This document shows positions 3,169 to 50,916 of a stretch of 64,000 nucleotides of DNA, piece by piece. The notes below the pieces were generated by a model. The model worked only from the letters and a program-made list of their open reading frames with translations. It ran no database searches and had not been told where the DNA came from. Source of the DNA: Mytilus edulis (Eukaryota); the NCBI RefSeq assembly GCF_963676685.1, contig NC_092351.1, forward strand, positions 83,576,001 through 83,640,000, written 5' to 3'. Made by a program: the position numbers and the translations under genes. The first letter of the stretch is position 1. Each line of letters opens with the position of its first letter.

Positions 3169-4224
3169 CCAATATATAAATACCTCTTTAGCTGAGTCTG
3201 TACGCTAAAAGATACGTTAACTAAGTTCATTTATTTTGTTTTCGAAGATTTTTCCTAGGGGATTATAAAATGTTGAAAATAAATATCCCGGACTGATAAA
3301 ATTTGGGATGAACAATTTATACTATGCATAATCATCAGATACTCCTGAAGCGGTGAAAATATATGTGGTGTCTGGTCAAATTCTTTTTTTCAAAATTTTC
3401 TACGTTTTTTCTGACATTTAATTTAAAGTTGTGTGATAATGATTCCTAATAATGTAGCTTCAATATAAGGCTGATAAAGATCCTCAGATAGCTTTAGGTT
3501 GTCGTTTTATTATGTGATACATATTTGTTTTTCGTTATTTTTTTTTCATCAATAATGCCATTAGTTTTCTCGTCTGAATTGTTTTACATTGTCATTCCAG
3601 GACCTTTTGTAGCTAAATATACGGTATTGGGTTTCCTCGTTGTTGAAGGCCGGACGGTGGCGTATAGTTGTTAATTTCTGTGTCATTTGGTATCTTGTTG
3701 ATGGTTCTCTTATTGGCAATCATAGCACAAGTATATCTTCCTTTTATATTATATCATTCCAAATTGTCAGCATTTGACTTAGTAGTACATGTTTAAAGAA
3801 GCATGTGACGGTTCAATCTTGTAAAAGGACATATATTCTTCAACTATTCATTTGTTTTTAGTAGAACAAAGTTGTCTAACAATTAAGCTGAAACAAAATT
3901 GTATTTCGAAATAATCGTGTTTTTTTTACAGAGCGAATATTCTTTTTACTGCTTGGGGAATATATACAGTTTTGCTTCGGGGGTACCTGATCGGTTGGTG
4001 TACTAGAAGAAAATGAAAATTCTGCATCATAAAATGAGGGCTATATATATAATTGTGTACAAAAATGAAAAAAAAGCATGCGTAGTTTCAGATGAAAAAC
4101 AATACTAGTATTCAGTTATCAACATTTTTTTTTTAAATCTGTCTGTCCCGTTTTTATCCTGTCCGTTTTATCATGTATATCTTTTATGTATGATATATAT
4201 TTTATATAGTCATTTTTTTATAAA

Positions 4225-4790
4225 CTTTACTGTTTTCAAATGTATGAATTATTCTACACAAATAAGGATGTTCTTATCATAGACAGAAAAACTCTAGCCG
4301 TATTCGGCACAACTTTTGTGAACTTTAGGTCCTCATTGCTCTTAAACTTTGTACTTGTTTTGGCTTTCGAATCTTTTGCATCTACGCGTCACTGGTTAGT
4401 CTAATGTGAACGAAACGCACGTTTGGCGTATTACATTTTTAAAATGGTACCTTTTGTTAGCTATTATGAGTGTGTTTCTCTCTCCTATATGTTCTCCCAT
4501 TTAATATTAAATTTAACATTGCCATAAAAGCGGGAGTTTTGGCATGCCACAAAACAAGGATCAACCTACCATTTTTTTCTTAAAATGTCCTGTACCAAGT
4601 CAGTAAAATGGCCATTGTTATATTATAGTTTGTTTCTGTGTGTTTTACATTTTAATGTTGTGTTTCTGTCGTTGTTCTCTTATATTTGATGCGATTTCCT
4701 CTGTTTTAGTTTGTAACCCGGATTTGTTTTTTCTCTATCGATTTATGAGTTTCGAACAGCGGTGTACTACTGTTGCCTTTTTGTATCAGG
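4225..4790 (+). mobile_element. Composite dispersed repeat: degenerate hammerhead (4385-4430) followed by twister-like motif (4521-4612)
   Basis: GCGTCA-CTGGTTAG-TCTAATGTGAAC-GAAA-CGCACGTTTGGCGT is a decayed copy of the hammerhead seen elsewhere in the window. Downstream GCCAT...ATGGC encloses GGGAG..TTGG and CCT-GT-ACC-AA-GT-CAG. Confidence 0.55.
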
Positions 4791-5983
4791 AATTTAATCG
4801 CATATTCAATACAACCCGGACAATTTATATTAATACATGGATTGTAAAACTCGTTTTAACAGCAAATCATTTGACCAGAAAAAATGGATCGTGCATGACT
4901 TTTCATTAAGATGTTGAAGGGACAAAATCTATTTATGTTCGTAATTGATCTGCTATTTTTATTTCTATTTAAAGATCAACTCGTTTTTTAAGTAACTGTA
5001 CAGATTTAACTTTGCACTGAGCATGCACAATAAAACATGTTAATGATGCTTTCTCGAATAACCCATTTTATCAATTCGAATCGACCAATGTGTTCCCATT
5101 AATAATTTTACATATATGAACATCAAATGATCCAGTATACAGTTGTTATAAGAAATCTGACAGAAAATACGCATTGACATGATGCAGAACTTTAACGAAC
5201 GAATATGTCTATTCTGAAGACTGATATGTTTACAGCGCTCATATCGTAATTCAGTACTTTTTTCAGTCCTTATATGCTTAAACGAAGATTGTTTATTGAA
5301 ATAAAAGGATTTTTTTGCATATAAATATATGTGTTAAATATTTATACATTTTGTTAAAACATTCATTATGTACACTGAACATGTCCTGTTAGGATAGTTA
5401 ATAATTATTATATACATTTCAATACTGCAAGTGTCCTAAAGAGATGGTATGTGCTTCGTCGCATATTTGAATAACTGTGTTCATGAATTATACTTCTGTA
5501 TGTCTGTTTGTTTTTAATATACATGTACACAAAAAAATATAAATAGAAGAACTTTATTATATGCGTAATAAGTCTGTCAATTTTAGAATTACATACATTC
5601 ATATAGTCAGCTTACACATTTTTTACCAACAGGATTCTATAACGAAACAATACTTTTACATTCAAACATGTTTTAATTTAACAAAAAATGTACGGTGTTT
5701 AATCTCACAGTTCAAATTAAAGATAAATAAATAGTGTGTCACTAACATATTTGGTTTTAATTCAAACAGATTATTTCAAACAAATAGTGTTATCTTATAC
5801 AGTGAATACGAAGGTTAACATGCACCTCATATGATAAATCATATTGCAGGTGACAACGCAACACTGTCTATCTGATAAAAAAAGATCAATTTTATATATT
5901 GGATAGATTAATACTTGTATCCACGTATTTGATATTTGAAAAGAAAAATTTTAAGAAGCAAAAATATCTGTACTACAGTGAAA

Positions 5984-8900
5984 ATGGCACAAACTTATAA
6001 CGTTTTGATGTTTATATTCTTATTCAGCAGTTTAGATGTCCTTCTAATTCGTAACACATCGGCATTTCTTATTGATGTTAGTGCTAATAATCATCAGGTT
6101 ACAAAAGATCCGCCATCTACACAACAAGCACAAAGGGATATTTCATTCCAAAGAGATATGAACCTGCTGAAACAAGAAGTGGAAATCTTAAAACAATCTC
6201 ATCCAAATTATCCGTCTGAAGAAATATCTCAAATGAAAAGTGTTATAATGAGTTTAAAAGAAACAATGCGTGAATTAAACGGAGAGGTACAAAGTTTACA
6301 AGTTGCAAAAGTAAATTTGATTGAGGAATTAAAGCAAGTCCGGAAGGAAATGTACAGGACCGAAAATAGAACTGCCGAACTAGCACTCGAATGCACTTCA
6401 TTTCTGAAAGACTTAAGTCACCTAACAACTAATCAAAACAAGAAACTTGAAAACAGTTTAGACATTCTTAAAAAGTCAGTTGCAGGCAACATCAGTTCAC
6501 TAAACCAGAAGATTTCTCATACAGACGCCCAGCTTAAATTGATATCGTTTACAACAAACTCGTGCTGCCAGAATGTCAAAGTATTACTGAATAAAACCCA
6601 TCTTTTAACTTCACATCCATCGACAACAATGACATTTACGACACCCACTACTGGAAAAGTCAACAACGCAATGATCGGGAGTTCTGTGTTTGAAGTACAA
6701 ACTACAATTTCTTCGACAAAACCCAGCGATATTAGGCGAACCGTTATTTTCTTTCAAAAATACGCTGTGTCTGGCCAATACTTGTTTATAAGAGGAGGAA
6801 TAGATGAACGTCACAGTTCAGGTATGTTGCTTACCTGTAGTATTTATAACCAGAGTGTCATGTTATTTATAGAAACTGTTGTATCGTCGTGCTACAAAAT
6901 ATATAGTTCTCCATGTGGTTTTGTTTAACATTTTTTCGCCATTTCGTGTTAGCATTGATATAATATTTCTTAAAACCTTCATTTCGGTGATTGATATACA
7001 ATATCAGAGCTTAGACAACTTTTGTGATGTAGTTTTAGTATTTAGTAAAGGGGCTAGGGTCCTCAAATAAATGTTCACTGATATGACTCAAATTCTTCTA
7101 TTTGATTTGTAACATACTTAAACGTATATCCAAATTATAAAAAGTCTAAAATAAGCAATTAACAAGGCTAGTGCATGATAATATGTATTTTCGTTTCGAG
7201 TGTATTTTAGTCTAGACTCCATCAAATGAACTATTGAATTGATATTAACATAAATATAGATATAAATAGATAGATAGTACTGCAATTATTTACTTCTAGG
7301 CACGTACGTTTAATGATAGATTAATCCATTTTTAGCTAAGGGGTTAAATTGAAAGTCACATGCATAGGAATTGAATGAGATCGAATTATTGAGACTTGCA
7401 TGTGAATAATTCGTCATAATTTTTACTTTGCTTATTTTGATAAAATTGAATCAAAACCGCTCTAAAAAGAGAATTTTTATATCACTATTTTCCACTTTCA
7501 TTCATGATTGAACAAAAAACATAGTTTTATATATGTATATCTCGTAGCGAGTGCTTATTCAAAACATAAGCTGCTTTTCAGGTTTATGTGCACTTTTTCC
7601 TGCGTGCTTCTGTGTTATTTATTTATTCTGTAGTTTCTTTAATTATTTTTCATACCTTTGAAAATGTTTTAATTATTTGAATTTTTTGCACAGTTCCTCT
7701 ATTCACCATTTGTTTTGCTATTCATGCTATTGTTCTCTGTTCTATAAACACCACCCAGATGTGTTTGTGTTCATATATTGTGCTGTTACAAACTGTTCCT
7801 ATATTATAAGGAGTGTTATCTATTGTGAACATATTCAATTATGCAATATACTGCTTGGGATTGTCCCAAACAAGACGACTGCAATGCAAATTAAGTGTTT
7901 CTCATATTTGGTTTTAGTTTCATGAAATTTAATTTTCCCGTTAGAATTCTTTTGCATGTTAAAGCCTTGTTTGGCTTGCTTTGCGGTTAGGGCTTTTCGC
8001 ATTATTGACATATCCTGATTTATATTTGCTAACTTCGATTTTTTTTGTTTATAGCTCTTCATATTTTTATTAAGCTTTGGATTTTCAAATATTTGGTCTC
8101 GGGCATCAATGAAGAGACATTGATTGTGCAGATAAATTGGGACCGTTTATATCACTAACATTTTTTTCAAATCCTATCCAGCAGATAATTTATGTTTGCT
8201 TTGAGAATATTTATCATTTAAAAAAAAATAATTTCAAGGATCAGAACCAATTGGTGATCTACTTCAACTACTTTTTGAAAACAAAATTGAAGATCATTTG
8301 AGATAATTTGAGATGTTTAGGGATTTAATTTACATTTTTTATGAGAAAAATTAAATTATCGTTAGTCATCATGTCATTTGTGATATTTTTGTATTATAAT
8401 AGTTCATCATAGTGTTTGCATTTTTAAATTATGCCTCAAAGTTGTAGCCAGTAAATGAAGAAAATTTCCTTTACTATATGTTTTGAATATAAATGTTAGA
8501 TTCATTGTTCTTTAGTTCATGTATTTTTCATTTAATTGTTGTACATAAACAGTGTCAGAAGAGCAACAGAAACAGGTGAAATTGCTGTATATTTTTATGT
8601 ATGCATAAAAGCAGATTTGATAGAAAAATATGACTAAAATTGTATATGGTTGTTTTCAGTATGTCTGTCATTAAAAATAATGATTTTAATGCATGGGAAC
8701 TATTTTTTTAACTAAAAAAAAAAACAAGTTTATTTTAACAAATTCAATATAAACTTAGGGTATTTTGTCCAAAAAAACTACAATTATGATAAAAAAACAA
8801 AACAAATCAACACTTAAATGGAAGAAAGTATCCATTTTCTTATTTTCTTCTATATTTCATTTATATTCTTTCGACTGTTGTTTATGGTAAGTAGTTATCA

Positions 8901-11604
8901 AAGGTACCAGGATTATAATTTAGAACGCCAGACGCGCGTTTCGTCTACATAAGACTCATCAGTGACGCTCATATCAAAATATTTATAAAGCCAAACAAGT
9001 ACGAAGTTGAAGAGCATTGAGGATCCAAAGTTCCAAAAAGTTGTGCCAAATACGGCTAAGGTAATATAAGGTAAGTGTCAGGAGTGCAACAAAATCAGGA
9101 AAGCAGGGTGTTCATATATCTTTTTTTTTATATTTGAATATTTTTTTTGGTTTGTTTGCCATCTAAAAAGATTACTCTTACACGAAAAGTAATGTATCTT
9201 AATTTGATCTTAAAAACTTTTTGAACCAGCCTCATAAAAAATGAGGGGGAAAAAGACAAAAAAATAATAATTAATAAAAAAAAGTGTAGTACAAAATGTT
9301 TTATGCCTGAAAATAATAACTTTAGTCCCAGTGATTAATTGCACTGTAAAAAACTGTCAATTTCTGTTTTGAATTCTTTTCAAAAAATATAATGCAATGT
9401 TTTCATGTTATAGTTTTCTTTTTTTTATATCCTGTTAATAAAAATGCTGAAACTTTTTTAATTATTTCTTGATTGTATTGTTCTCTTCGATTTACGAACT
9501 TCAATGAACAAACAATCTAAAATTACCGACGAAAAACTATTTCAACTTGGTTGAAAATTGACCAAAAAATTCAGTTTGTGCCTCATTCATTTTGAATTCA
9601 CGCATATCTTATTTTTATAACTCAGATAATGAGTTGTCGGAAGAGTTTAAACATTTCTTTTATTTGTAGATATTGGTATGCTGATAATTTCTCCTTATTT
9701 AACTTTGTTGTCTATCTATAATAGTTTTCAAAATGATAGACATGAATGAAAACATATTTAACATTTAAAGAGAAATAACTCATATAAGAAGGCGCATGCC
9801 ACTTAATTCGTAAAAACAACAGGTAGATCTGAACATTCTGATAATTTCTGTTTCGTCATGTTATCTCTATCCATAGCGGTTTTCTAGATGATCAACAAAA
9901 CTTGCATTCTACCTCTTTTGTTCAAGTCCTAGCAATGTCAGCTACAAAATGAATTCTGGAAAAAATGTTGAATGTTTAAAACGAATGTTGAAAGTTAAAC
10001 ACGAATGTTGAAAGTTGAACACGAATGTTGAAGGATGAACTCGAATGTTGAAAGTTGAACACAAATATTGAAGGTTGAACACAAATGTTGAAAGTTGAAC
10101 ACGAATGTTGAAGGTTGAACACGAATGTTGAAAGTTGAACACGACAGTGAGAGTTGATCACGAATGTTGAAAGTTGAACACGAATGTTGAAAGTTGAATA
10201 CGAATGTTGAAAGTTGAACACGAACGTTGAAAGATGAACACAAATGTTGAAAGTGTGTATGTTGACAGGTACATTGGATCATCGGATCATATTTTAAAAC
10301 TAGATTCCGCAATAATGGTTGTAGTCAAGTCTAATTAAATTTCAGAAAAAAAAAATAACGACGAAGACGACGGACGGAAGATGCAGGATGACAAGTGATG
10401 ATAACTGCTCAGTTGGCTTTTCGGCTAAATGAGTTCAACTCAGTTTATATAGATTCGAAATAAGAGACATTTTCAGTTATTATAGTCGTTTAAAGATAAT
10501 ATTTTTTCAGGTTGTAGAGGTATGTCAGTGGCATCAATGAGTAATTGTTCCATACCAATACAAAGCATCAATCTTGGATCAAGCGGACAGTATGACGCGT
10601 ATAATGCATGGCGAAATGGAGACAAGTTATTGGATTGGTTTGGACCGGAGCCTGGTCAAGGTACATTTCAAGGAGAACGGGCCTTTGGTACGCCGGCTGT
10701 CTGGACGACTAACAACCCAAGTGATGGTAGATACAACAAACTCAATACGTAAGACTTTTTAAAAAAACCCACCTCTATATCAATGTTCACATAAACATTT
10801 TGAGTGTAGGGGATCGGTTCATTCACGTGCTGATTTCGAATGATAGGTTCAGTCTGCTACAATTAGAAATAAGGACAACGACTGACCGGTTTTGAATCAG
10901 GAAAATGTGTCAACGTAGGGTGACTTGTTTTCGAGTTAAAAATGCTTTATGATTTTTTGTTGGAAAGCGGATAAAATTCTGATGACTGGGCTATGAATAT
11001 TTCTTTAACAGGAATTTTCTTTTGCTTTTTTGATAAATTGTCAATACTTATACAAAATCAAAGGTTTTATGACGCGTTTAATTCATGGCGAATTAAAGAA
11101 CCTGGTCATGGTATATTCATAAGAAACAAATAATTCTTATCCACGAAATCAACGAAATTAAATCTTTAACGAAAATTGATGCTTTTACGATAGTGATATG
11201 GTGTATTGTTCTAATAATTATATACGATTTCAAATATAGATGATATTGAAAACTGAACACTCAATGCAATATGAGGACTGATTTGAATTTGTAAAGATTG
11301 TGTAACTTAAAATGTGTAATACTCTATGATTTATGTGTTTTATCGTTTTTACAGATTTGGCGAACATTATTGGTTAGTGAACATTGAAATGGATTGTTCT
11401 AAGACAATTAGTGGTTGGTTCGAAGTAAAAGCTTATATTGGCTCTAATGATAATTTTAACTGGGAAGATAACATACTTCAACATAATTCTTGCTTCGGAA
11501 CCGAAAGAACTCCGTATGCAAATGTTTATCACTGGGCTAAATGTGGAATGATGAACGTTTTTCATTTTAATCAAGTGGCATGTGAAACGTATATAATAAA
11601 TTAG
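5984..11604 (+). CDS. Secreted coiled-coil protein ending in the alpha-amylase C-terminal (putative carbohydrate-binding) module; exons 5984-6821, 10511-10748, 11355-11604; 441 aa
   Basis: ATG 5984, hydrophobic N-terminus, heptad-rich middle, T/S-rich linker. Motifs RTVIFFQK..GQYLFIRGGID, CSIPI, WRNGDKLLDWFG.E.GQG, GTPAVWTTN, LNTFGEHYWLVNIEMDCSKT..GWFEVKAY, WE..I.Q, HWAKCG..NVF.FN follow the order recalled for the P. haloplanktis amylase C-terminal domain. GT-AG introns have matching phases (1 and 2). Stop TAG 11602-11604. Confidence 0.9.
8893..9069 (-). ncRNA. Retrozyme fragment with intact minimal type I hammerhead ribozyme (8925-8968) in intron 1
   Basis: Minus strand reads GCGUCA-CUGAUGA-GUC(UUAUGUA)GAC-GAAA-C(GCGC)G-UC^UGGCGU with all core nucleotides present. 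Flanked by a GGTAAGT direct repeat (8886-8892, 9070-9076), a possible TSD. Confidence 0.85.
9965..10255. repeat. 20-bp tandem array (AATGTTGAAAGTTGAACACG)n, ~14 units, inside a probable Helentron-type HINE (end near 10440)
   Basis: Units are directly visible. Nearby GACG-rich tract and GCTCA...TGAGT hairpin at ~10360-10440 resemble a reversed HINE 5' end. Confidence 0.8.
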
Positions 11605-18200: not shown

Positions 18201-18806
18201 TGTGTTAATTTAAAGAACAGGATCACAAGCAGATAGTTCTCCATATGTTCTGATATTGTTTATCGATTTTTACATTGTTTACATTGCCATTTTTTCTTTA
18301 ATCATGGATAAGAGTACCTTTAAACCATTCATCGGGGAGATATATAATAAAACATGGTTTAACAACTTTTTGAATTATAAAGTATTAAGAATATCAGTCT
18401 TCTTTACTAATGGAAATAGACAACAGCAAAAAACACTTTTTGAGATGTTGTTGCATTTATAAATACATTTACTGCTGATATTTACTTGTATACATATATC
18501 AATAATTGCTTTGTACGTAATTTTAAAGGTTAACAATTAATTTAGGCCACTTGCATCCATGAATAAATGTTAAATCTCAATTAAAAAGTAAAAATACAAA
18601 AATACTGAACTCCAAGGAAAATTCAAAAAGGAAAATAAAAAAACAAAAGGCAAAATCAAAAGTCCAAACACATCAAACGAATGGAAAACAACTGTCATAT
18701 TCCTGACGTGGTACAGGTGCACCAAGCTAGGATCCAGCGGACATGATACAACGTACAATGCATGGAGACATGTAGAACATATCCTGGATTTAAGATGGGT
18801 GTAAAC

Positions 18807-18924
18807 CTGGTCATGAGACATTACTAGGACATCACACTTAAGCTCTATGGATTACCAATAACCCACTGGTCATGAGACATTACTAGGACATCACACGTAA
18901 GCTCTATGGATTACCAATAACCCA
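18807..18924. repeat. 59-bp tandem duplication (2 copies, 1 mismatch)
   Basis: CTGGTCATGAGACATTACTAGGACATCACAC(T/G)TAAGCTCTATGGATTACCAATAACCCA twice. Confidence 0.9.
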
Positions 18925-21625: not shown

Positions 21626-24600
21626 TTATTTGCCTTGCATGATCTTGGCCATTACTTCTTTAAAATCGAATTCATTAATGGTTGTTCCCTGTAATTTTAA
21701 ACCGATTAATAGCGCCCTCTTTAAATAGTCTTTGCTTGTAGTATATACCATCTTGTGAGGTGCAGGGCTGTCTTCTGGTGACCTGTAAACAAAATGGTAA
21801 AATTATATTTCAGACCAACTAAACCATGTAAAAGGTACCTGTTACGCTAGAAATTTAATTACAAACTGTATCTATGCTTTTGATTTGAACAACTCTAAAT
21901 TTACCAAACAATAAGTTTTTCTGTTATATTTCCACAAGTCTATGCTCTGATTGTTCAGTGGCTAATATAAACCTTTAAAAACGAGAATTATTAAAATCAA
22001 ACCTGCTTAAGGGACCACCTGTATTAAGCAGAAACCTGCGTTAAAAGACCATCAATTTTATATCCCTCTGTAATACAATTCATATAAATTGAATCTGTAT
22101 TAAAAGAACCACCTGTCTTAAGACACCACGTTTTTGCTCTCCCTTAAGTGGTCGCTTCAAACTGGTTTAACTGTATTTGCAAGTACTAGACAGTTCTATA
22201 ACAGCGGCAAGCAAAAGTATGATCAGCACCCACTGAATTTACTATAAGAGTATATATGTAACACTCCCAAATCTGTCCGAGTCCCTCAAACGTGTCGATT
22301 CTCCATAAATGGTCCGTTACATTCAATATTGCCCGAACGTGTCCGATTTTATAACCCTGAAACGTGTCCGATAATTGTAATTCGCCAAAACTTGTCAACT
22401 AGTAAACGCCAGAATTATGTCTCATGTCTTTTAGCGCAAATACATGCATGTCCTAAATGAAATCAATAACTTGTACGGCAATTTTATGATGGGTGACATA
22501 GTTGATGAGGTGGTAATTTTTTAGCATTGGTTTGTATTATGTGAATTAACTTATGACTGAAATTGATTATTGTCCAGTTGCAAGTTTGTCGTGCTTATTT
22601 GGATCAAACATACAAATAATTCTAAAACAGTTGAATTGATTGTTAACTATGTATATTATTTTGTTCTAATACACTCCGATTATGCCTTTCATATTAATCC
22701 GAATGTTGCAAAACGGGCTTTCGGGAGAATTGATCTTTCTAATGTCCCTCGTCTATAATGTCGAATCTACTAACCTTACTTTATCAATTGGCAGTTAACA
22801 AAATTGCAAAAGGCAGCTGAATTCCTTTAAAATATATTTCTAAAGTACTAGCTCTCCAAAAGTCGAGTTCATGCTATTTATAAAAATGAAATGGTTTCTT
22901 ACTGCTATTGTATTCTAAAACAAATTGACCAAATAACGCTGTATCAATCAATATATGATACAATAAGAAAAAGAAACAACACTAAAATCATGTTGACATA
23001 TTTATTGTCGTCATAGTGATAAAGATTATTACACAATCTTGACTGATGAACCCATTTTTTTTACATTTTACCCAGTTTACAGGGTTTTTTTTGTTCACAC
23101 ATTGCCGTCAATAGAATAGGGTTTGATGCGACTGTCGGGTTACCTATAAAACCAGGTTTAATCCATTTTTTTCTACATAAGGAATAAGTATATTAACAAA
23201 ATATCTGAACTCCGAGGAAAATTAAATATGGAAATTCCCTAATTAAATGGCAAAATCAAAAGCTCAAACGCATCAAACAAATGGATAACAACTGTCATAT
23301 CCTTTACTTGGTACAGCCATTTGGGTAGAAAAGGATGGATTTGATCTGGTTTTATATCAATCTGAACTTCTTGTTTGACGGTCACATCAAATTTCTTTAT
23401 ATTGACAGCGAAGTGTAAAAATGGGTAATAATGTCAAGAAAGGGTTACAGCGGACAATATTGTCTTATAAATGTTATAATCGTAATACATATGACAGTTG
23501 TTTTTTATTCATTTAATGTGTTTGAGCTTTTGATTTGCAATTTTTGATCAGGGACTTTCCATTTTAATTTTTCTTCTGAGTATGATATTTTTTAAATCAA
23601 CTCATAATGGAGTTGGTCATAATTAATTTGCAATTACCAATGTTTATAATTGTTCAATACTTTTCACTCAAACAATTTACATCTCAATAAAGCATTTTAG
23701 ACAACTCAAAATTTGACCTGCATTAGATTTGCAAACTTTAGTTAAATACAATCAATAATGAACATTGAAGGATTTCACTCAAATTTCAGTTAATCAGTCA
23801 CTAACAATCCAGGAAAATATGAAACAAAGTGAGAAAATAATATAAAAAATTACGTAGTCAGGAGCTTCTTGCCACAGTAAGTATTGTAATTTTTTTTATT
23901 TGTATTTTACTTCATTAATATGTTTTAGAGTGTATTATGAGGTCCATTTTTACTGAACAAGTACACAGTTTTATTTAGGGGCTAGCTGAGACGACCACCG
24001 GGTGCGGGAAACCAACTGGTAGCCATCAGCTGTTATCTGCTCTTTTTGCCGGTTGTCTTCTATATGAAAGACATGTATTCCTCCTTTGCATTCTTAATTT
24101 AAGACGGTGTACATCTATCAGTGTTAGTGTTGAATAGAAGGACATTTAAAAGAGTCAACTGATTTCCGCGAAGTTTCACTTTAATTGGTACAATTTCACG
24201 AATGATTAATTTGTTTAAATACACTTACCAAGCAAAGAATACTATGTTATTTTTGATTGTGAGCTGGTCTTGCCACTGAGCATTAAAAACCGCGTATCGA
24301 CAATCACCCACTTCTACTAATTCCTGGAGGAATCGTTTGTAAGCAACGTCTGAAAAAAATGTTTTTTGAAATCTAATTATTTATAGAAAACAGTGAATAT
24401 ATAAAAAAAACGGACAACAAAACTCACGTCCAATAAAAAAACAAAACAATTAAGGCCTTGTACAAAAAGGGATATTTCAATCATAAACACTGAAAACTGA
24501 AAAGTAAAAACTGAGCAACAAAAACCCGACACAAATTGAAAGAAAAAAATAGTTTAATTATTATAGAGGAACTCAATATTATTGCTACAAAAGACCTGTA

Positions 24601-27600: not shown

Positions 27601-29866
27601 TCCGATTAGATCCCGAAAAGTAGGCGGATGGTCATAAAGTTTCAAAGGCCAAAAGTTTCAGAAGGTACACTTGTCGTATATCAAACGAAAGGTCATACAA
27701 AGAACATTACAAAAACATCACTTTTACAGGAAAGACCTTTCAATTGTTTTACAAACAATTTAGATACTAGTTATATATGTTTTTATATATATTAATCCTG
27801 GTAAAGGATCACCAAAGAAACTTTAAATTATTTTGCCATGTTTATTACAAGTTTTTCAATTGGTTGAAAGATATAGGAATATGTGGTATAAGTGCCAAGG
27901 TGATAACTCTCCATCCAAGTCACAATTTATTAAAAGTTAACCTTTATGGATCAAGGTAGGTCTTTAACACAGAGCCTTAGCTCGCACCATAATGCAAGCT
28001 TTAAATGGCACCCAAAATCACTAGTGTAAAACCGTTTAAACGGAAAAACCAACGGTCTAATATATGTATAAAAACGACCAAAGAGCAGAAAATAGCCGAA
28101 AGCAACTTTGTCTTGTCTACAGGATACCAACTGACATAATAAAAAATACCATGGTAGTAATATGTATCTGTTACATTTGATCTTAACTATACATACTGAA
28201 AAGTACAAATCTGATTTTTTTCACCTGAATATGTATAAACCATTCATACATGTGTTTCAAGTTATAAATAGAAAATGTGTTAAAATTCATCTGACACTTT
28301 TAAAAACTTAGTAAGTGTGTCTAATTTTCGAACTATATACATAAGCATTACTTTTTTTCAAATATCATACCAATACACTTGATGTGTTTTGTGAATCGAT
28401 TTTATGCTATGTTTATTGTAAAGGTCCTTAAATAAAACACATATATTTCATTTCATACAATTTATAGGTAATGCATGGATTTTATTGTTTTGGGCCAATA
28501 GAAACAAATTATATGAACAAACTGTATGAGTGTTACCAATTTCTACATTTAAGTAGTATTCGGACTTGGTCTACATTTTATTGACAATCAGAAAAGCAGT
28601 TATTCACCCGGTTTTGTATTGATACACCACGATATAATTTAAGTAAGTGCTGATGACCATAGTTGTTGCATTCGTCTTTGTCCATAAGTCTTTTTGTGGT
28701 AAAGTTGTCTTATTTACAAACACACCCTACTTTTGTCATAAAACAATGCACTAGTAAGACAAAGGGGGCGTATATCACAATCATGTTTGTTTTAAATAAA
28801 TAAAACATATGTATGTACAAATGTCTGAATTTTAAAGAAAACATGCAACAATGTGCGTGTGCCTTTCTGCATGAATATTTATCTATAATATTTTTTTATT
28901 CAATATTGAATACTCCGAAATCCATAATAAGATATAAACAAACCTGAGACTATAACAGCAATTACTCACCTATTTTTTGTTTATCTTTGATTATAAGTGA
29001 AACATATTGATCTGTAAATTTGCTTTCTTGATCTTCACTCGCCGGGATTCGAACCCCTGCTTCTGAGATATTGTGATACCAAATCGCCTGCACTGTACCC
29101 GTCCCACTAGATCACACGACCACCTGGGCTTCATAAAAATGAAGTTTTTGGTGGCCGGGTGTTACCTTTCCACGTTAGTTATAATCTAGCGTCGTACTAC
29201 AGTACATGATATATAAGGCAGGAAAATGTTATTCTTACAGATCAGCTTATAAATTAATTATCAAAAATACCAGGATTATAGTTTTATACGTCAGACGCGC
29301 GATTCGTCTACATAAGACTCATCAGTGACGCTCATATCAAAATATTTTAAAAGCCAAACAAATACCAAGTTGAAGAGCATTGAGGACCCAAAATTCCAAA
29401 AAGTTGTGCCAAATACGTCTAAGGTAATATATTCCTATCTATAGTAACATAAAGGATCCCACAAATTAATGTAGGATACAGTCATAGAAAATAATTATAT
29501 TTATAAGTACATCTGAGCCAATGACAACTCTACAACAAACTTATCCATCGGATCATCAGCAGTGATGGTGATACAGGGATGTGTACATTTTTGTATATAC
29601 AACTCGTCTAAACATCAACCCAACCATGTTCATGATGTTAGATCTGTAAACTTGCTTTTGCAATTTTTTTAGTCTTCTTTCGCCATGATTTGAACCCATG
29701 CTGCTGAGATATAATGACACCAAATCGCCTGCACTCTATCAAATGACTATGAAGACAACAAAAACAAAATAATCGAAGTATCATGTTGTAACAATTATAA
29801 CAATAGACCTAAGCTACTATTTAATGAAAATAATGAATGGATCATAGTAATACTCACCGTTGACAT
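21626..29866 (-). CDS. ADF/cofilin family actin-depolymerizing factor; coding exons 29866-29858, 25479-25344 (or -25335), 24349-24229, 21782-21626; probable non-coding exon donor at 31063
   Basis: Spliced protein MST|GVTVANECVEEFERLKMKKAYHYITFKLDNEMTHIVVDKT..|VAYKRFLQELVEVGDCRYAVFNAQW..KNNIVFFAW|SPEDSPAPHKMVYTTSKDYLKRAL..LQGT..EFDFKEV..*. GT-AG junctions are phase-consistent. Two candidate phase-1 donors exist for exon 2. Confidence 0.9.
26250..27772 (+). mobile_element. Helentron-associated interspersed element (HINE/DINE-1-like) in cofilin intron
   Basis: 5' hairpin GGTCTTTCC-CCTACGTAA-GGAAAGACC; 3' subterminal GGAAAGACC followed by the short palindrome AATTGTTT-TAC-AAACAATT and CTAGTT. 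Confidence 0.7.
29010..29740 (-). mobile_element. Pol III (tRNA-related) repeat, ~1.5 tandem copies, with a retrozyme fragment inserted (~29255-29440)
   Basis: Minus strand shows A-box-like GGTGGTCGTGTGATCTAG and B-box GGTTCGAATCCCGG. The same family is at 62862-63140. The nested hammerhead 29288-29331 has GAAA changed to GAAU. Confidence 0.65.
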
Positions 29867-36760: not shown

Positions 36761-39059
36761 TCATATCAAAATATATATAAAGCCAAACAAGTACGAAGTT
36801 GAAGAGCATTGAGGATCCAAAATTCCAAAAAGCTGTGCCAAATACGGCTGAGGTAATCTATTCCTGGGATAAGAAAAGCCTTAGTTTTTCGAAAAATTCA
36901 AGGTTTAGTAAACACTAAATTTATAAAAATGACCACATAATTGATATTCATGTCAACATTGAAGTGCTGACTACTGAGCGGGTGATACCCTCGGCAACGA
37001 AACGTCCGACAGCAGTGGCATCGACCCAGTGGTGTAAATAGTTATCAAAGGTACCAGGATTGTAATTTAGTACGCCCGACGCGCGTTTCGTCTACATAAG
37101 ACTCATCAGTGACGCTTATATCAAAATATTTATCAAGCCAAACAAGTACGAAGTTGAAGAGCATTGAGGATCCAAAATTCCAAAAAGTTGTGCCAAATAC
37201 GGCTGAGGTAATCTATTCCTGGGATAACAAAATCCTTAGTTTTTTGAAAAAATCAAGGTTTAGTAAACAGCTATAAAAATTAAGAGTTGTCATACTTCTT
37301 GATCGTTTCTTCTAATGCAGTGTGGGTTCTGAGTGTTGGAATTTATTTGTTATAAAATATTCTCCGTCATTTTGATCGTACAAATGAAAAAGTATAAGAA
37401 AAAAGGTCGCGTTTGAATGCGAATTCAAGAATTTGCATTTCCTCTAAGAATTTATTGCTAGAGGGTTGCTTTCTTCATATATCTGGCAGCTATCTTACCA
37501 AAAATTATAATGCTTAAGTTGAATTAATCATCTCGAGTCCCTTCGAAAATTTCAAAAATGTCATCACAAGGTAGTTGATCGTTATGGAAAACCTGTTTAA
37601 AAGTTCACACCGGATTTGTTCAAATGTCGTTACCAAAATCTTGTTTCCTTTTCCTTGATTATGACCTGCCAATTATACAAATCGACGGGTTTGTACTGAT
37701 GAGCATCTCGATGAGTGTGAAATATGGATTAGGATATGTTTACACTTCCAGAGCACCTGTAAGCCCTCGGTTGTTGGTGGGGTTTATGTTGCTTTAGTTT
37801 TTTGGTTTCGTCCATGTTTTGACAATTGTTGTTAAGTTTTTTTTTTATTGGAGTTTGACTGTTAAAATCTAATACAGCGGTAGATAAAATTGTTTTACGT
37901 TACAACAATTAGATACAACATTTGGATATTGAACGTTATTTGAAGTAGACATTTGTATCCATATGATGAGTTAAGCCTTTTCCAACTGATTTTTATAGTT
38001 TTATATTGTAATGTTTCACCACTGTCCTAGGTTAGAGAATGGTTTAGATCACGCTAAATGTTCAATCAAGCAACATTCTGTATGTTTGTGTCTGTCTTAA
38101 GTCAGGAGTCTGTAATTCGGTGGATTTCGTATGTTGCTTTGTTACATATTTGTTTTTCGTCCATTTTTGTGTACATTAATTAATCCGTTAGTTTTCTTGA
38201 ATTGATTTGTTTACATTGTCATTGCAGGGCCTGATACTGTTGACGGCCGTAAGGTGTCCTATATTGTTAATTGTTTTGTCCTTTTGGTCTCTTGTGAAGA
38301 GTTGTATCATTGGCAATCATACCACATCTTATCTTATATATACACCTCCGTTCTGGCGATATTATTTAGATGTAGTGATTGACTTTATGAACAAATTAAA
38401 TGTGAAATATACAAAAGAAAATGCAGTTGACCTAGAAATCCAAGACATCCAGACAGGTCGATTACCATTTACTTATTGTTACGTAAATAAACGAGTAAAA
38501 TATATATATTTCATAAACCACTTCGATTAGTTTTATAAATGTTTATTTGATTTGAATAGGTTTACAAATTTAAACTTAGAAATTCATCCACAATAACATT
38601 CCTCTTCAACAAATATTGAACAGTGAAATGTATATATTAAATAAACCATTTCGATAAGTTTTATAAATGTTCATTTGATTTTAAGAAGGTTTACAAATCT
38701 AAACTTAGCAATTCAACCACAATAACATTATGCAATCGCATTTAAAACGTTGTACTCAAATAAAATGTTAGCATCAATGATTCAATAACTCAAATAAATG
38801 TATTTATCAAAGTTGTACAAAATCGAACATGTAAAATGTTATTTGTTTAAAGTTAACACGTGTTTGGTTAATTATAGTAAGGTTGGTTCGATTGGGATAT
38901 TGAGTTAATGCACGAGTGAACTCAGGTGGTTTAAAGTCATTCGAGCCAAAGTCAAAGTGTACAGTAGCATTTTATTATGTTCTCTCCACCTTGTACTTTA
39001 CGTAATACGGCAAGTTCTGAACGTGAAGAAAGTCACATCTATGACATTAAGATACTGAG

Positions 39060-48620: not shown

Positions 48621-50916
48621 TAGCAAATTATTATTATAGTCACTAGGGTGAATGTTTAGACAATACGAAATTGTATTGAATCTATTAGACATGTATTTTG
48701 GTATAGTATTTAACTAAATAAGTTTCTTTAAATAGTTATAATAAGATGCTCACATACACCTGGATCAATATATAATTTAAAATAAAATTCACTAAGTAGT
48801 CAAATGTTAATAAGTTCTCAAAATGATTCGTCTCTCGAATTCAAGACCCAGAGCTAACACCTGTACTTCTGATAAGATTTTTCTGAAGCATAACAGGTTA
48901 CATCCGGACAGAGGAAAGGATGGTGACGTTAGAAAAGACTTTCCAGCACAGTTATCTATTCATCGAAATTAGGAAATAAAAACAAATATTCAATGTTATT
49001 TTCCCATTCTTTGTGTTTCGAGAGCCATTGCCTCTGCAAGTGGCGTCTCCCATGTAAGAGTTTGTGAATATTTGATAAATATTTTATGTTCGTATGAGTT
49101 TACGAATTAGAATTTAAATGTATTTATCAAAGTTGTACAAAATCGAACATGTAAAATTTTGTTTGTTTATAGTTGACACGTGTTTGGATAATTATAGTAA
49201 GGTCGGTTCGATTGGGATATTGAGTTAATGCACGAGTGAACTCAGGTGGTTTAAAGTCATTCGAGCCATTGCAGTCAAAATGTACAGTAGTATTTTGCAA
49301 AAGAAACAATATTATTAATCATATTATTTATTTTAAGATTTGTGAACCACAAGTATTGGGAAACCAGTACATGCGACTAAGTAGCTATATAGACATGTAT
49401 TTATATGAACTTTCAACAATATTTTACTCATATTTATGATAAAATGTGCGCTTGTCTCTGCAAAAAGTAAAATCACAAAAATACTGAACTCAGAAGAAAA
49501 TCAATTAGGAAAGTCCATAATACATGGCAAAATCAAATAACAAAACGCATCAAAAACGAATGGACAAGAACTGTCATATTCCTGACTTGGTACAGGCATT
49601 TTCAAATGTAGAAAATGGTGTATTAAGTGGCGTCTCCCATGTAAGAGTTTGTGGTTATTTGATAAGTATTCTATGTTCGTTTGAGTTTACGAATTAGAAT
49701 TTAAGTTTTATTTTATCATATAAGACATGTCTATAGATACAAACCCTTCCTCTTCTAAAAATACTGTAGTGCAAATGAAGACCTTGCCCAATTGTGTTGG
49801 TTTTTCGGAAAAGAGTTTAATAGAAATAAGAAAAAGAAAACCGGTAATAATACTATAATGAGAAAAAAACATTTTAATAACATAATTGTTAAAGACAATT
49901 GGTATAGTATTTAGCCTTAACCTACACATTTTCAATAAAACACACATAATAACTCACTCAAATACACAAAGGAATGATCAAATTAAAAAAACAATATATA
50001 TAATACCGTCACATACAATTTTTATCAGATCAAAAATTTTCAAGAAAACAAATGCGTTGATTTTATTCAGCTTCTGCTATTAATGTTCACGTATGACACG
50101 TATGCGGAAAGCTCACCTGAATACACTTAACATTTTAAGCTATAAAATAAATTACGTTTCTTGGAATTGTTTTATATGATTCTTAGTGCCCCCTACAGTT
50201 TTCACTAGAACATGGATTTAATCATATACTGTAAATTCCAAAATTATTTTTGAGCGATAGATACAAATGTCGGTCGATTATCGATGTAGCATACAGATTA
50301 TAAGATAAAATATGAAATAATAATTTGTTTTTGTGTCATCTTTTGCGTCGCAAGTTTTGAATTAATAAAACCATTTCAAAGACTTCAGAATTTACGTTAA
50401 TGCAAAGTTCATGAGATTTTACATTTCCTTTTATTCTCTCGTCTTAATAATGTAATTATATCAGTATGACCCATATGCGAAGCGACATCCAAAGCACTTT
50501 CATGGCGTTGGTTTCGAAGGTTAGTATTACAATTGTAACCTAATAACAGTTCTACAATGCGGGTATGACCCATACTTGAAGCTATGTGTAGAGGACTCTG
50601 CTTGTACTTATCACACAAATCGGGATTACTATTGTTTTCTAACAATGTTTCTGCAATTTCTGCATAACCTTTAAACGTTGCTTTAAAAAGAGGCGTTTCC
50701 ATCTGTTTGTTACATTTATTTGTATCACAGTTCTGTTTTAACAATAATCTAACAATATCAATATAACCCTTGCCTGCAGCTATGTTCAAAGGTGTCTCAC
50801 CATACTTATCACAAATATTAGGATCACAATCATGTTCTAACAATAATTCTACAATTTCTGCAAAACCCTGAAGCGATGCTTTAAAAAGAGGCGTTTCTTG
50901 ATTTTTGTTACATATA

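Follow-up and report, generated by a model that had tools for sequence, protein, structure and literature searches.

Naiads are Penelope-like retrotransposons recognised by a GIY-YIG domain placed before the reverse transcriptase (RT), CxC and DKA motifs, tandem copies joined through pseudo-LTRs and heavy 5' truncation (Craig et al. 2021, PMC8557442). The available text of that paper, which defined the group, reports no canonical hammerhead and left open how Naiads reach copy numbers in the tens of thousands when they lack the hammerhead of other Penelope-like elements. Canonical Penelope-like elements carry dimeric hammerheads in the pseudo-LTR, together with a palindrome that suggests dimers (PMC6765202, available text). 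In the anole element Poseidon, according to the available part of PMC11167929, reverse transcription starts internally, the hammerhead is protein-assisted, insertion in vitro did not require its cleavage, and its cut coincided with no read ends.

A type I hammerhead also characterises the mussel non-LTR retrozyme, described with a period of 350-390 bp in the available text of Cervera and de la Pena 2020 (PMC7229834), and a preprint whose abstract deals with hammerheads only ties retrozymes to Penelope-like elements (bioRxiv 10.64898/2026.07.22.740005). Twisters form a different ribozyme class, in which type P5 (Rfam RF02684) has the order P2, T2, P3, P4, L4, T1, GA, N^AA (features per the available parts of PMC11662667 and PMC6765202); they tolerate defects in P1 and P2 and any base at -1, but no change of A1 or A2 (PMC11662667, available text). 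A twister has been tied to a retrotransposon in Schistosoma, where Perere-3, a non-LTR element, carries it at the 5' terminus with its cut beside the target-site duplication (Liu et al. 2021, PMC8501958, available text).

The locus studied here carries a predicted twister in the pseudo-LTR of a Naiad and, in one lineage, a hammerhead. The position in a pseudo-LTR and the palindromes recall the Penelope-like hammerheads, but the ribozyme is of the other class and the palindromes number two, not one. In contrast to Perere-3, the fold lies inside the 3' repeat and insertions run across its cut. It shares the order, the invariant catalytic letters and the P5 opening of type P5, from which it differs in having a P3, a two-palindrome linker of ~23 nt in place of P1 and, in Naiad lineages A and B, T1 ACC/GGU and T2 AC/GU. 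This predicted link between twister and Naiad is the main finding and is new relative to the literature searched: no such link was found there, the text and supplement of PMC8557442 never mention a twister, and the available text of a review covering both twisters and Penelope-like pseudo-LTR elements draws no link between them, although the putative bivalve twisters of PMC11662667 may include some of those described here.

Window copy, repeat family and host element

The window is the whole stretch analysed, 64,000 nucleotides of Mytilus edulis contig NC_092351.1 (83,576,001-83,640,000). An earlier note, made from its letters, had described a degenerate hammerhead followed by a twister-like motif in a permuted layout with AC/GU as T2. 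Letters and arrangement of both motifs were confirmed (Table 1), the permuted layout is borne out by the P5-permuted order and by covariation across families, and the copy is indeed degenerate in both cores. The proposed spacing of about 90 nt holds for the window copy (91 nt) but not for the family (about 129 nt), because 38 nt are missing from this copy at 4499/4500.

Table 1. Features of the window copy (positions in the window)
Feature	Position	Strand	Remarks
Truncated Naiad 3' pseudo-LTR copy	4194..4780	+	lineage B, CTGGTTA subfamily; 3' UTR/pseudo-LTR; 5' part missing
Retrozyme-derived segment	4202..4465	+	78% identity to retrozyme monomer L042; stops at the retrozyme's usual 3' end
Decayed type I hammerhead	4386..4429	+	2/12 core positions changed; predicted cut after 4423
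Naiad-specific spacer	4466..4520	+	private 38-nt deletion at 4499/4500
P5-permuted twister fold	4521..4612	+	1/14 core positions changed; catalytic letters intact
P5	4521-4525/4608-4612	+	GCCAT/ATGGC
P2	4530-4533/4565-4567	+	GCGG/CCT; followed by G4534 A4535
T1	4536-4538/4594-4596	+	GTT/ACC; G>T at 4537 breaks one pair
T2	4568-4569/4599-4600	+	AC/GT
P3	4570-4575/4582-4587	+	CATTTT/AAAATG
P4	4589-4592/4601-4604	+	CCTG/CAGT; G>T at 4604
Palindrome 1	4541..4548	+	GGCATGCC; within the linker standing in for P1
Palindrome 2	4553..4561	+	damaged in the window copy; family form AACCAGGTT; lineage C form AACATGTT
Predicted twister cut site C^AA	4562..4563	+	by analogy with twister N-1^A1 A2 of PMC11662667
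Fixed 3' end of lineage B insertions	4767..4780	+	in tandem units, 5' UTR and ORF follow directly

The hammerhead of the window copy comprises stem I (GCGTCA/TGGCGT), stem II (GTC/AAC), GAAA, a palindromic stem III (ACGCACGT) and the triplet GTT, with the core CTGGTTA where the intact form reads CTGATGA. A6G and G8U are common to its subfamily, so that neither the copy nor the subfamily has the active type I core (CUGANGA, GAAA, NUH), and the stem II mismatch and the GUU cut triplet are private. In the anole element a G8 change abolished hammerhead cleavage (PMC11167929, available text). With one T1 and one P4 mismatch, the twister of the window copy would be impaired, but not surely dead. The copy has no ORF, and an Rfam scan of the window region returned no hammerhead and no twister match. 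BLAST identity to window 4194-4786 is 77-80% for old copies (L092, L120, L004), and the unit of the intact element L252 matches the window copy at 74-82%. Elsewhere in the window, 3600-3740 (+) is by eye a 3' end of lineage C1, three pieces match the element's retrozyme-derived part (8900-9058, 29286-29421 and 37037-37255, all -), and four decayed twister-family pieces lie at 18688-18848 (-), 23114-23218 (+), 23288-23387 (-) and 49567-49652 (-).

Used as a query against the 1.37-Gb AT-rich genome, 4225-4790 returned 10,084 candidates. Forty were scored, and the top 30 among them align across hammerhead, spacer and twister-like motif, with ragged 5' ends and a sharp, shared 3' end at ~4780. Loci picked by the CTGGTTA core alone have the twister at fixed spacing in 22/30 cases, and those picked by the intact hammerhead word in 0/30, one of them having a lineage A twister 379 nt away. 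A hammerhead precedes the twister at 7/30 loci picked by the lineage A/B twister word (17,512 exact genome matches) and at 0/30 picked by the lineage C word (20,036 exact matches). In 600 kb fetched blind, 2/27 hammerhead and 2/29 twister matches were linked, and profile searches on shuffled sequence gave 0 matches. The best-30 alignment, the 22/30 CTGGTTA loci and the empty shuffles argue that the pairing is not chance. Hammerhead and twister are thus genuinely paired, recurring together at fixed spacing rather than being adjacent at a single locus, yet only in one Naiad lineage, B; the linkage proposed as family-wide stands for this multi-copy family and not beyond it.

The repeat family of the window copy belongs to an autonomous Naiad with its own ORF and corresponds to the 3' pseudo-LTR of that element. 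Long lineage B copies extend upstream into an RT frame, and a protein search gave 150 scored matches of 98-100% identity, some with open frames of 1007 codons. In 10/13 fetched regions a frame of 1000-1007 codons lies between direct repeats (~270-3450 nt, 97-100% identity) ending at the lineage's fixed 3' end, and the tandem unit measures ~4.5-4.75 kb. The downstream repeat holds the hammerhead remnant and the twister, as does the upstream repeat where it is long enough, being truncated inside the twister in 2 of the 10 regions. The L252 ORF (1004 aa) has a GIY-YIG domain at 135-223 (E 1.4e-4, 22.5 bits, cut-off 22.6) and a weak C-terminal RVT_1 match at 648-853 (E 0.011), and the lineage B translation contains DCSCAS (CxC), VPADKASNN (DKA) and CSISKCNRKNCKTC (a CX2-5CxxC finger before the endonuclease). 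Relatives of the window copy therefore display N-terminal GIY-YIG, CxC, DKA, C-terminal RT, partial tandems and 5' truncation, with graded 5' loss among 61 lineage B copies. The non-autonomous retroelement proposed earlier is contradicted by this GIY-YIG/RT frame, and the discovery of the ORF also led to the rejection of Helitron and SINE as identities. In comparisons over 800 nt, 6/8 elements have 0-2 differences between their own two repeats (13 and 20 in the others), compared with 4-19 differences from the nearest other element; the near-identity of repeats within elements indicates that lineage B is young.

Lineage C2, too, represents the 3' end of a Naiad. Its frame contains a UGA past the DKA motif, where a cysteine is conserved, and at locus L211 (G000:C1:1329000-1338999, 5373-9900) a SECIS-like hairpin is recognisable by eye directly after the stop. 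A CUGAUG stretch in C2 considered as a minimal hammerhead was dropped, as it fits a SECIS-like hairpin by eye. Selenoprotein Naiads have been reported in clams and spiders, but not among the two published Mytilus consensi. Another locus, L259 (G000:C6:35603500-35613499), has a sense-strand A>G cluster with 13 changes common to both pseudo-LTRs; it fits ADAR-like editing fixed by retrotransposition, an edited RNA segment being copied twice, and fits inheritance from an edited parent too. By eye, the lineage B 5' UTR is closer to oyster-type Naiads than to Naiad_Mgal and its 3' module is a Mgal-type twister, and a module swap in this lineage is possible.

Twister fold

The twister model, built from eight lineage B copies with nested stems only (T1 and T2 not fitted), was run on 28 chosen sources and matched at 47 places, lineages A and C among them. 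In this alignment, decayed copies included and pseudoknots counted, 87.8% of 940 cells are paired, compared with 77.7% in shuffles (0/500 reach the observed value, a control that related sequences can beat, with few independent lineages here) and 33-45% in slid controls. Helices are 82-92% paired, the unfitted pseudoknots T1 and T2 reach 82% and 86%, and 17/23 pairs have two-sided change. Two-sided changes occur in P2 and T1, those of T2 being mostly one-sided here (A-U/G-U). Between lineages, T1 changes from U-A to G-C, P2 from G-C to A-U and T2 from A-U to G-U, with further changes in P5 and P3; published consensi, by eye, have T2 CC/GG (clams only) and P4 CCCG/CGGG and ACCG/CGGU.

The letters predicted to be catalytic (A1, A2, the general-base G, the A.A pair and the L4 A) are unchanged in 139/140 core cells of the young elements, and the twister core is fully intact in 51/91 lineage B copies. 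P1 is absent: no in-register pairing is possible between the strands on either side of L1, and the two-palindrome linker takes its place. P2 has 3 bp and a bulge in lineages A and B, with a C.C mismatch beside the active site in young B subfamilies. By the rules of PMC11662667, young copies should be competent for cleavage. Palindrome 1 covaries in the genome as GGCTAGCC, AGCTAGCT, AGCGCT, GGGATCCC and GAGATCTC, and in both palindromes the letters change while palindromy is kept, which suggests dimers. The self-duplex energy of the linker is only mildly unusual (7-31/500 shuffles for seven sequences, 111/500 for one).

On the Rfam models named in the earlier note, intact hammerhead relatives come near the cut-off of Hammerhead_1 (33 versus 34 bits), but twister-P5 finds none genome-wide among 79 scored of 31,236 candidates. 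Rfam scans of 40 loci likewise returned no twister, and twister-P1 reaches 13.1 bits on the best lineage (E 9, cut-off 67.2). The models contain neither P3 nor the long linker, and scoring reached few candidates. A loose hand-written twister descriptor was discarded for lack of power (158 matches in 600 kb versus 148 and 127 in shuffles).

By eye, the twister layout ends 5/11 published bivalve Naiad consensi (Mgal, Bpla, Mphi, Scon and Mmer), where it is unannotated and has new P5, P3, P2 and P4 sequences. Lineage A and the 3' end of Naiad_Mgal agree in almost every letter, the record being assigned by file order. The CGi, Sglo, Olur, Tgra and Pmar consensi have a different 3' motif, and the visible end of Mcor has neither. 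Other phyla were probed with short words, at the first places listed; early records of the PMC8557442 supplement (ctenophore rows in metadata order) contain GA-GGU, two palindromes and U^AA resembling the front half of the bivalve motif, with P4/L4 not placed.

Hammerhead and mussel retrozyme

Judged by its letters, the lineage B hammerhead is derived from the known mussel retrozyme. The intact hammerhead word GCGTCACTGATGAGTC has 24,647 exact genome copies and the CTGGTTA word 358. Some retrozyme copies are tandem with a period of ~356 nt, and most stop ~35 nt past the hammerhead; this period and the type I hammerhead agree with the published retrozyme, which was matched by description and not by published sequence. 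In lineage B, by comparison, only ~265 nt remain, embedded in the 3' UTR of an autonomous Naiad and with a decayed core, and the coding unit of several kilobases differs from the non-coding tandem units of 170-400 nt, each with a hammerhead, that define non-LTR retrozymes.

Downstream of its 3' end, retrozyme sequence can be aligned to the 5' UTR of Naiad B (score 78, against a maximum of 61 in 2,000 shuffles), which suggests that the retrozyme is mobilised by this Naiad group, with Naiads as helper; such mobilisation would explain the capture of the hammerhead. In a comparison of L252 4625-4700 with L042 1576-1650, the post-end retrozyme sequence is similar to Naiad 5' UTRs, both that of lineage B and those of published bivalve elements. 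Lineage C1 (L181, L185, L207, L147 and L149) has a half-core, CTGATGAG, without GAAA, ~110 nt upstream of the predicted twister cut; it may be what is left of a second hammerhead, independent of the first.

The two motifs differ in how they were kept. Ten distinct rows remained from young elements once duplicates were dropped, one of them (L264) with only a partial frame, and they represent about four subfamilies rather than ten independent events. In these, the twister core is changed in 1/140 cells versus 146/918 in the adjacent spacer, and the hammerhead core in 45/120 versus 301/1152 in the retrozyme flank. An intact hammerhead core was present in 1/91 lineage B copies gathered before the targeted search; searching with that copy found both motifs intact at 11/30 loci, a set picked by likeness. 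The majority sequence of this CTGATGA subfamily (10 copies in the class) is intact in both motifs, and the copies indicate that a subfamily did amplify while both its motifs were intact. The canonical hammerhead is thus intact in the CTGATGA subfamily and absent in young B subfamilies and at the linked position in lineages A and C. A hammerhead dead from the outset was rejected on the 11/30 loci with an intact core.

Among 109 lineage B copies, distance from the retrozyme is 0.070 for CTGATGA, 0.085 for CTGATTA, 0.092 for CTGGTTA and 0.28/0.21 for CTGGTGA/CACATAG, with the twister core unchanged through the series; the subfamily order is based on these distances rather than on a tree, and divergence from the class majority is similar (6-8%) in all three older classes. 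At L316, an ORF end is joined to the twister with the retrozyme sequence absent, a single hint, from one degenerate ORF-linked locus, of a pre-capture state. Thirty loci found by the old subfamily's twister-side word are mostly too short to give the hammerhead state, with partial matches at 4/30. The hammerhead is likely a captured retrozyme passenger that decayed in younger subfamilies, and on this subfamily pattern the dual-intact state is a transient stage of one lineage. The maintained small RNA with two cuts that had been proposed finds no counterpart in the young subfamilies seen, in every one of which the hammerhead core is destroyed and the twister kept; the same pattern is the opposite of a family cleaving only at the hammerhead, the outcome set against that proposal.

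Proposed mechanism and alternatives

The favoured reading, which we regard as quite probable, is that the locus is a damaged Naiad pseudo-LTR in which the twister fold is likely self-cleaving, probably as a palindrome-paired dimer, and the hammerhead is likely a captured, decayed passenger. It draws on element anatomy, covariation, the contrast in conservation and presence in other bivalve Naiads. Tandem transcripts with two pseudo-LTRs would bring together two twisters pairing through palindromes 1 and 2 instead of P1, and these would cut at C^AA and release unit-length Naiad RNA, a release role that has also been suggested for the dimeric hammerheads of other Penelope-like elements (PMC6765202, available text). 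Reverse transcription would start internally at the fixed 3' end, on RNA that must be mostly uncut or re-ligated, since insertions do not start at the cut. In one lineage, a retrozyme copy would have been inserted ~130 nt upstream of the twister and then carried along, its hammerhead being intact at first; G8 and A6 would then have been lost, followed later by GAAA and stem III.

Insertion boundaries bear on the suggestion that the ribozymes mark the element ends, which they do not: 60/76 twister copies extend >11 nt upstream beyond the predicted cut, and the fixed 3' end is reached only some 220-380 nt further downstream. There is no 5'-end spike at the predicted cut among the 76 copies and no boundary exactly there; the interval from -11 to +26 contains 16/76 boundaries, several of which are duplicates or represent internal deletions. 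Of the sequencing runs listed as containing matching sequence, none is registered as RNA. In one RNA-seq run, with lineage C left out, 1,404 reads cover both strands of the repeat, with none past the 3' end, none in the 5' UTR or ORF and no accumulation of read ends where the cut is predicted; the reads are mostly passenger transcripts of old copies and uninformative on cleavage.

These boundaries, with the absent P1 and the weak P2, are what would be expected if the fold descended from a twister and no longer cleaved in lineages A and B, where it would be retained because it serves the ribonucleoprotein of the Naiad in dimerisation or protein binding. The insertion of anole Poseidon in vitro without hammerhead cleavage, and the lack of read ends at its cut (PMC11167929, available text), point the same way. 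This reading is nevertheless unlikely: GA, A1 A2 and the L4 AA are invariant in all intact lineages and in five published consensi and the stems covary, and a purely structural role would not need invariant unpaired catalytic letters. The twister may instead cleave as a monomer or with help from protein, the palindromes serving otherwise, for example as a DNA- or protein-binding site, and all else being as in the favoured reading. P1 is dispensable in twisters (PMC11662667, available text), the anole hammerhead is protein-assisted, and minimum-energy folds of five young or intact copies (B1, A twice, C1 and C2) recover P5, P3 and P4 as monomers, but palindromes with 0-2-nt centres cannot form hairpins and compensatory change is seen in at least 10 sequence variants, leaving this reading a very small probability. 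A slight probability attaches to a cassette in which hammerhead and twister both cut and release a selected RNA of ~175-180 nt. The fixed spacing in lineage B, the CTGATGA majority sequence and the 11/30 loci with an intact core agree with it, but the hammerhead core decays at or above the flank rate in all young subfamilies, was intact in 1/91 copies before the targeted search, and is missing beside the twister in lineages A and C and in the published Naiads.

If the favoured reading is true, the conserved twister, found in the same place, is a candidate answer to how Naiads multiply, directly testable since young intact copies exist (for example L252 8738-8840, L211 5603-5690 and L070 1424-1530), and Naiads would be a second class of retroelement carrying a twister. 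Should the palindromes behave as predicted, the twister would be dimeric, of which no example was found in the literature searched. Lineage B would record the pick-up of a retrozyme by its probable helper element and the stepwise decay of a ribozyme beside a retained twister. With >37,000 exact twister core matches in the genome (17,512 + 20,036), many host transcripts could carry predicted cut sites.

More tentatively, it is conceivable that Naiads use interchangeable self-cleaving modules in the pseudo-LTR, either an obligate-dimer, P1-less twister (mussels and clams) or an undescribed pseudoknotted, palindrome-bearing class (oysters, ark and pearl shells and one mussel lineage), and that one lineage passed through a stage with intact hammerhead and twister ~177 nt apart before losing the hammerhead. 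The mussel lineage concerned (L267-L269, G000:C1:406679-416437; L087:1130-1440) has a tandem period of 3,370, an RT 69% identical to that of lineage B, 9,267 exact matches of a 19-letter word and no twister at its 3' end. Its motif, which has no Rfam match, is common to oyster-type Naiads and comprises a closing stem, a second stem, a palindrome, a covarying pseudoknot and a hairpin; it is a candidate for another or a new ribozyme class.
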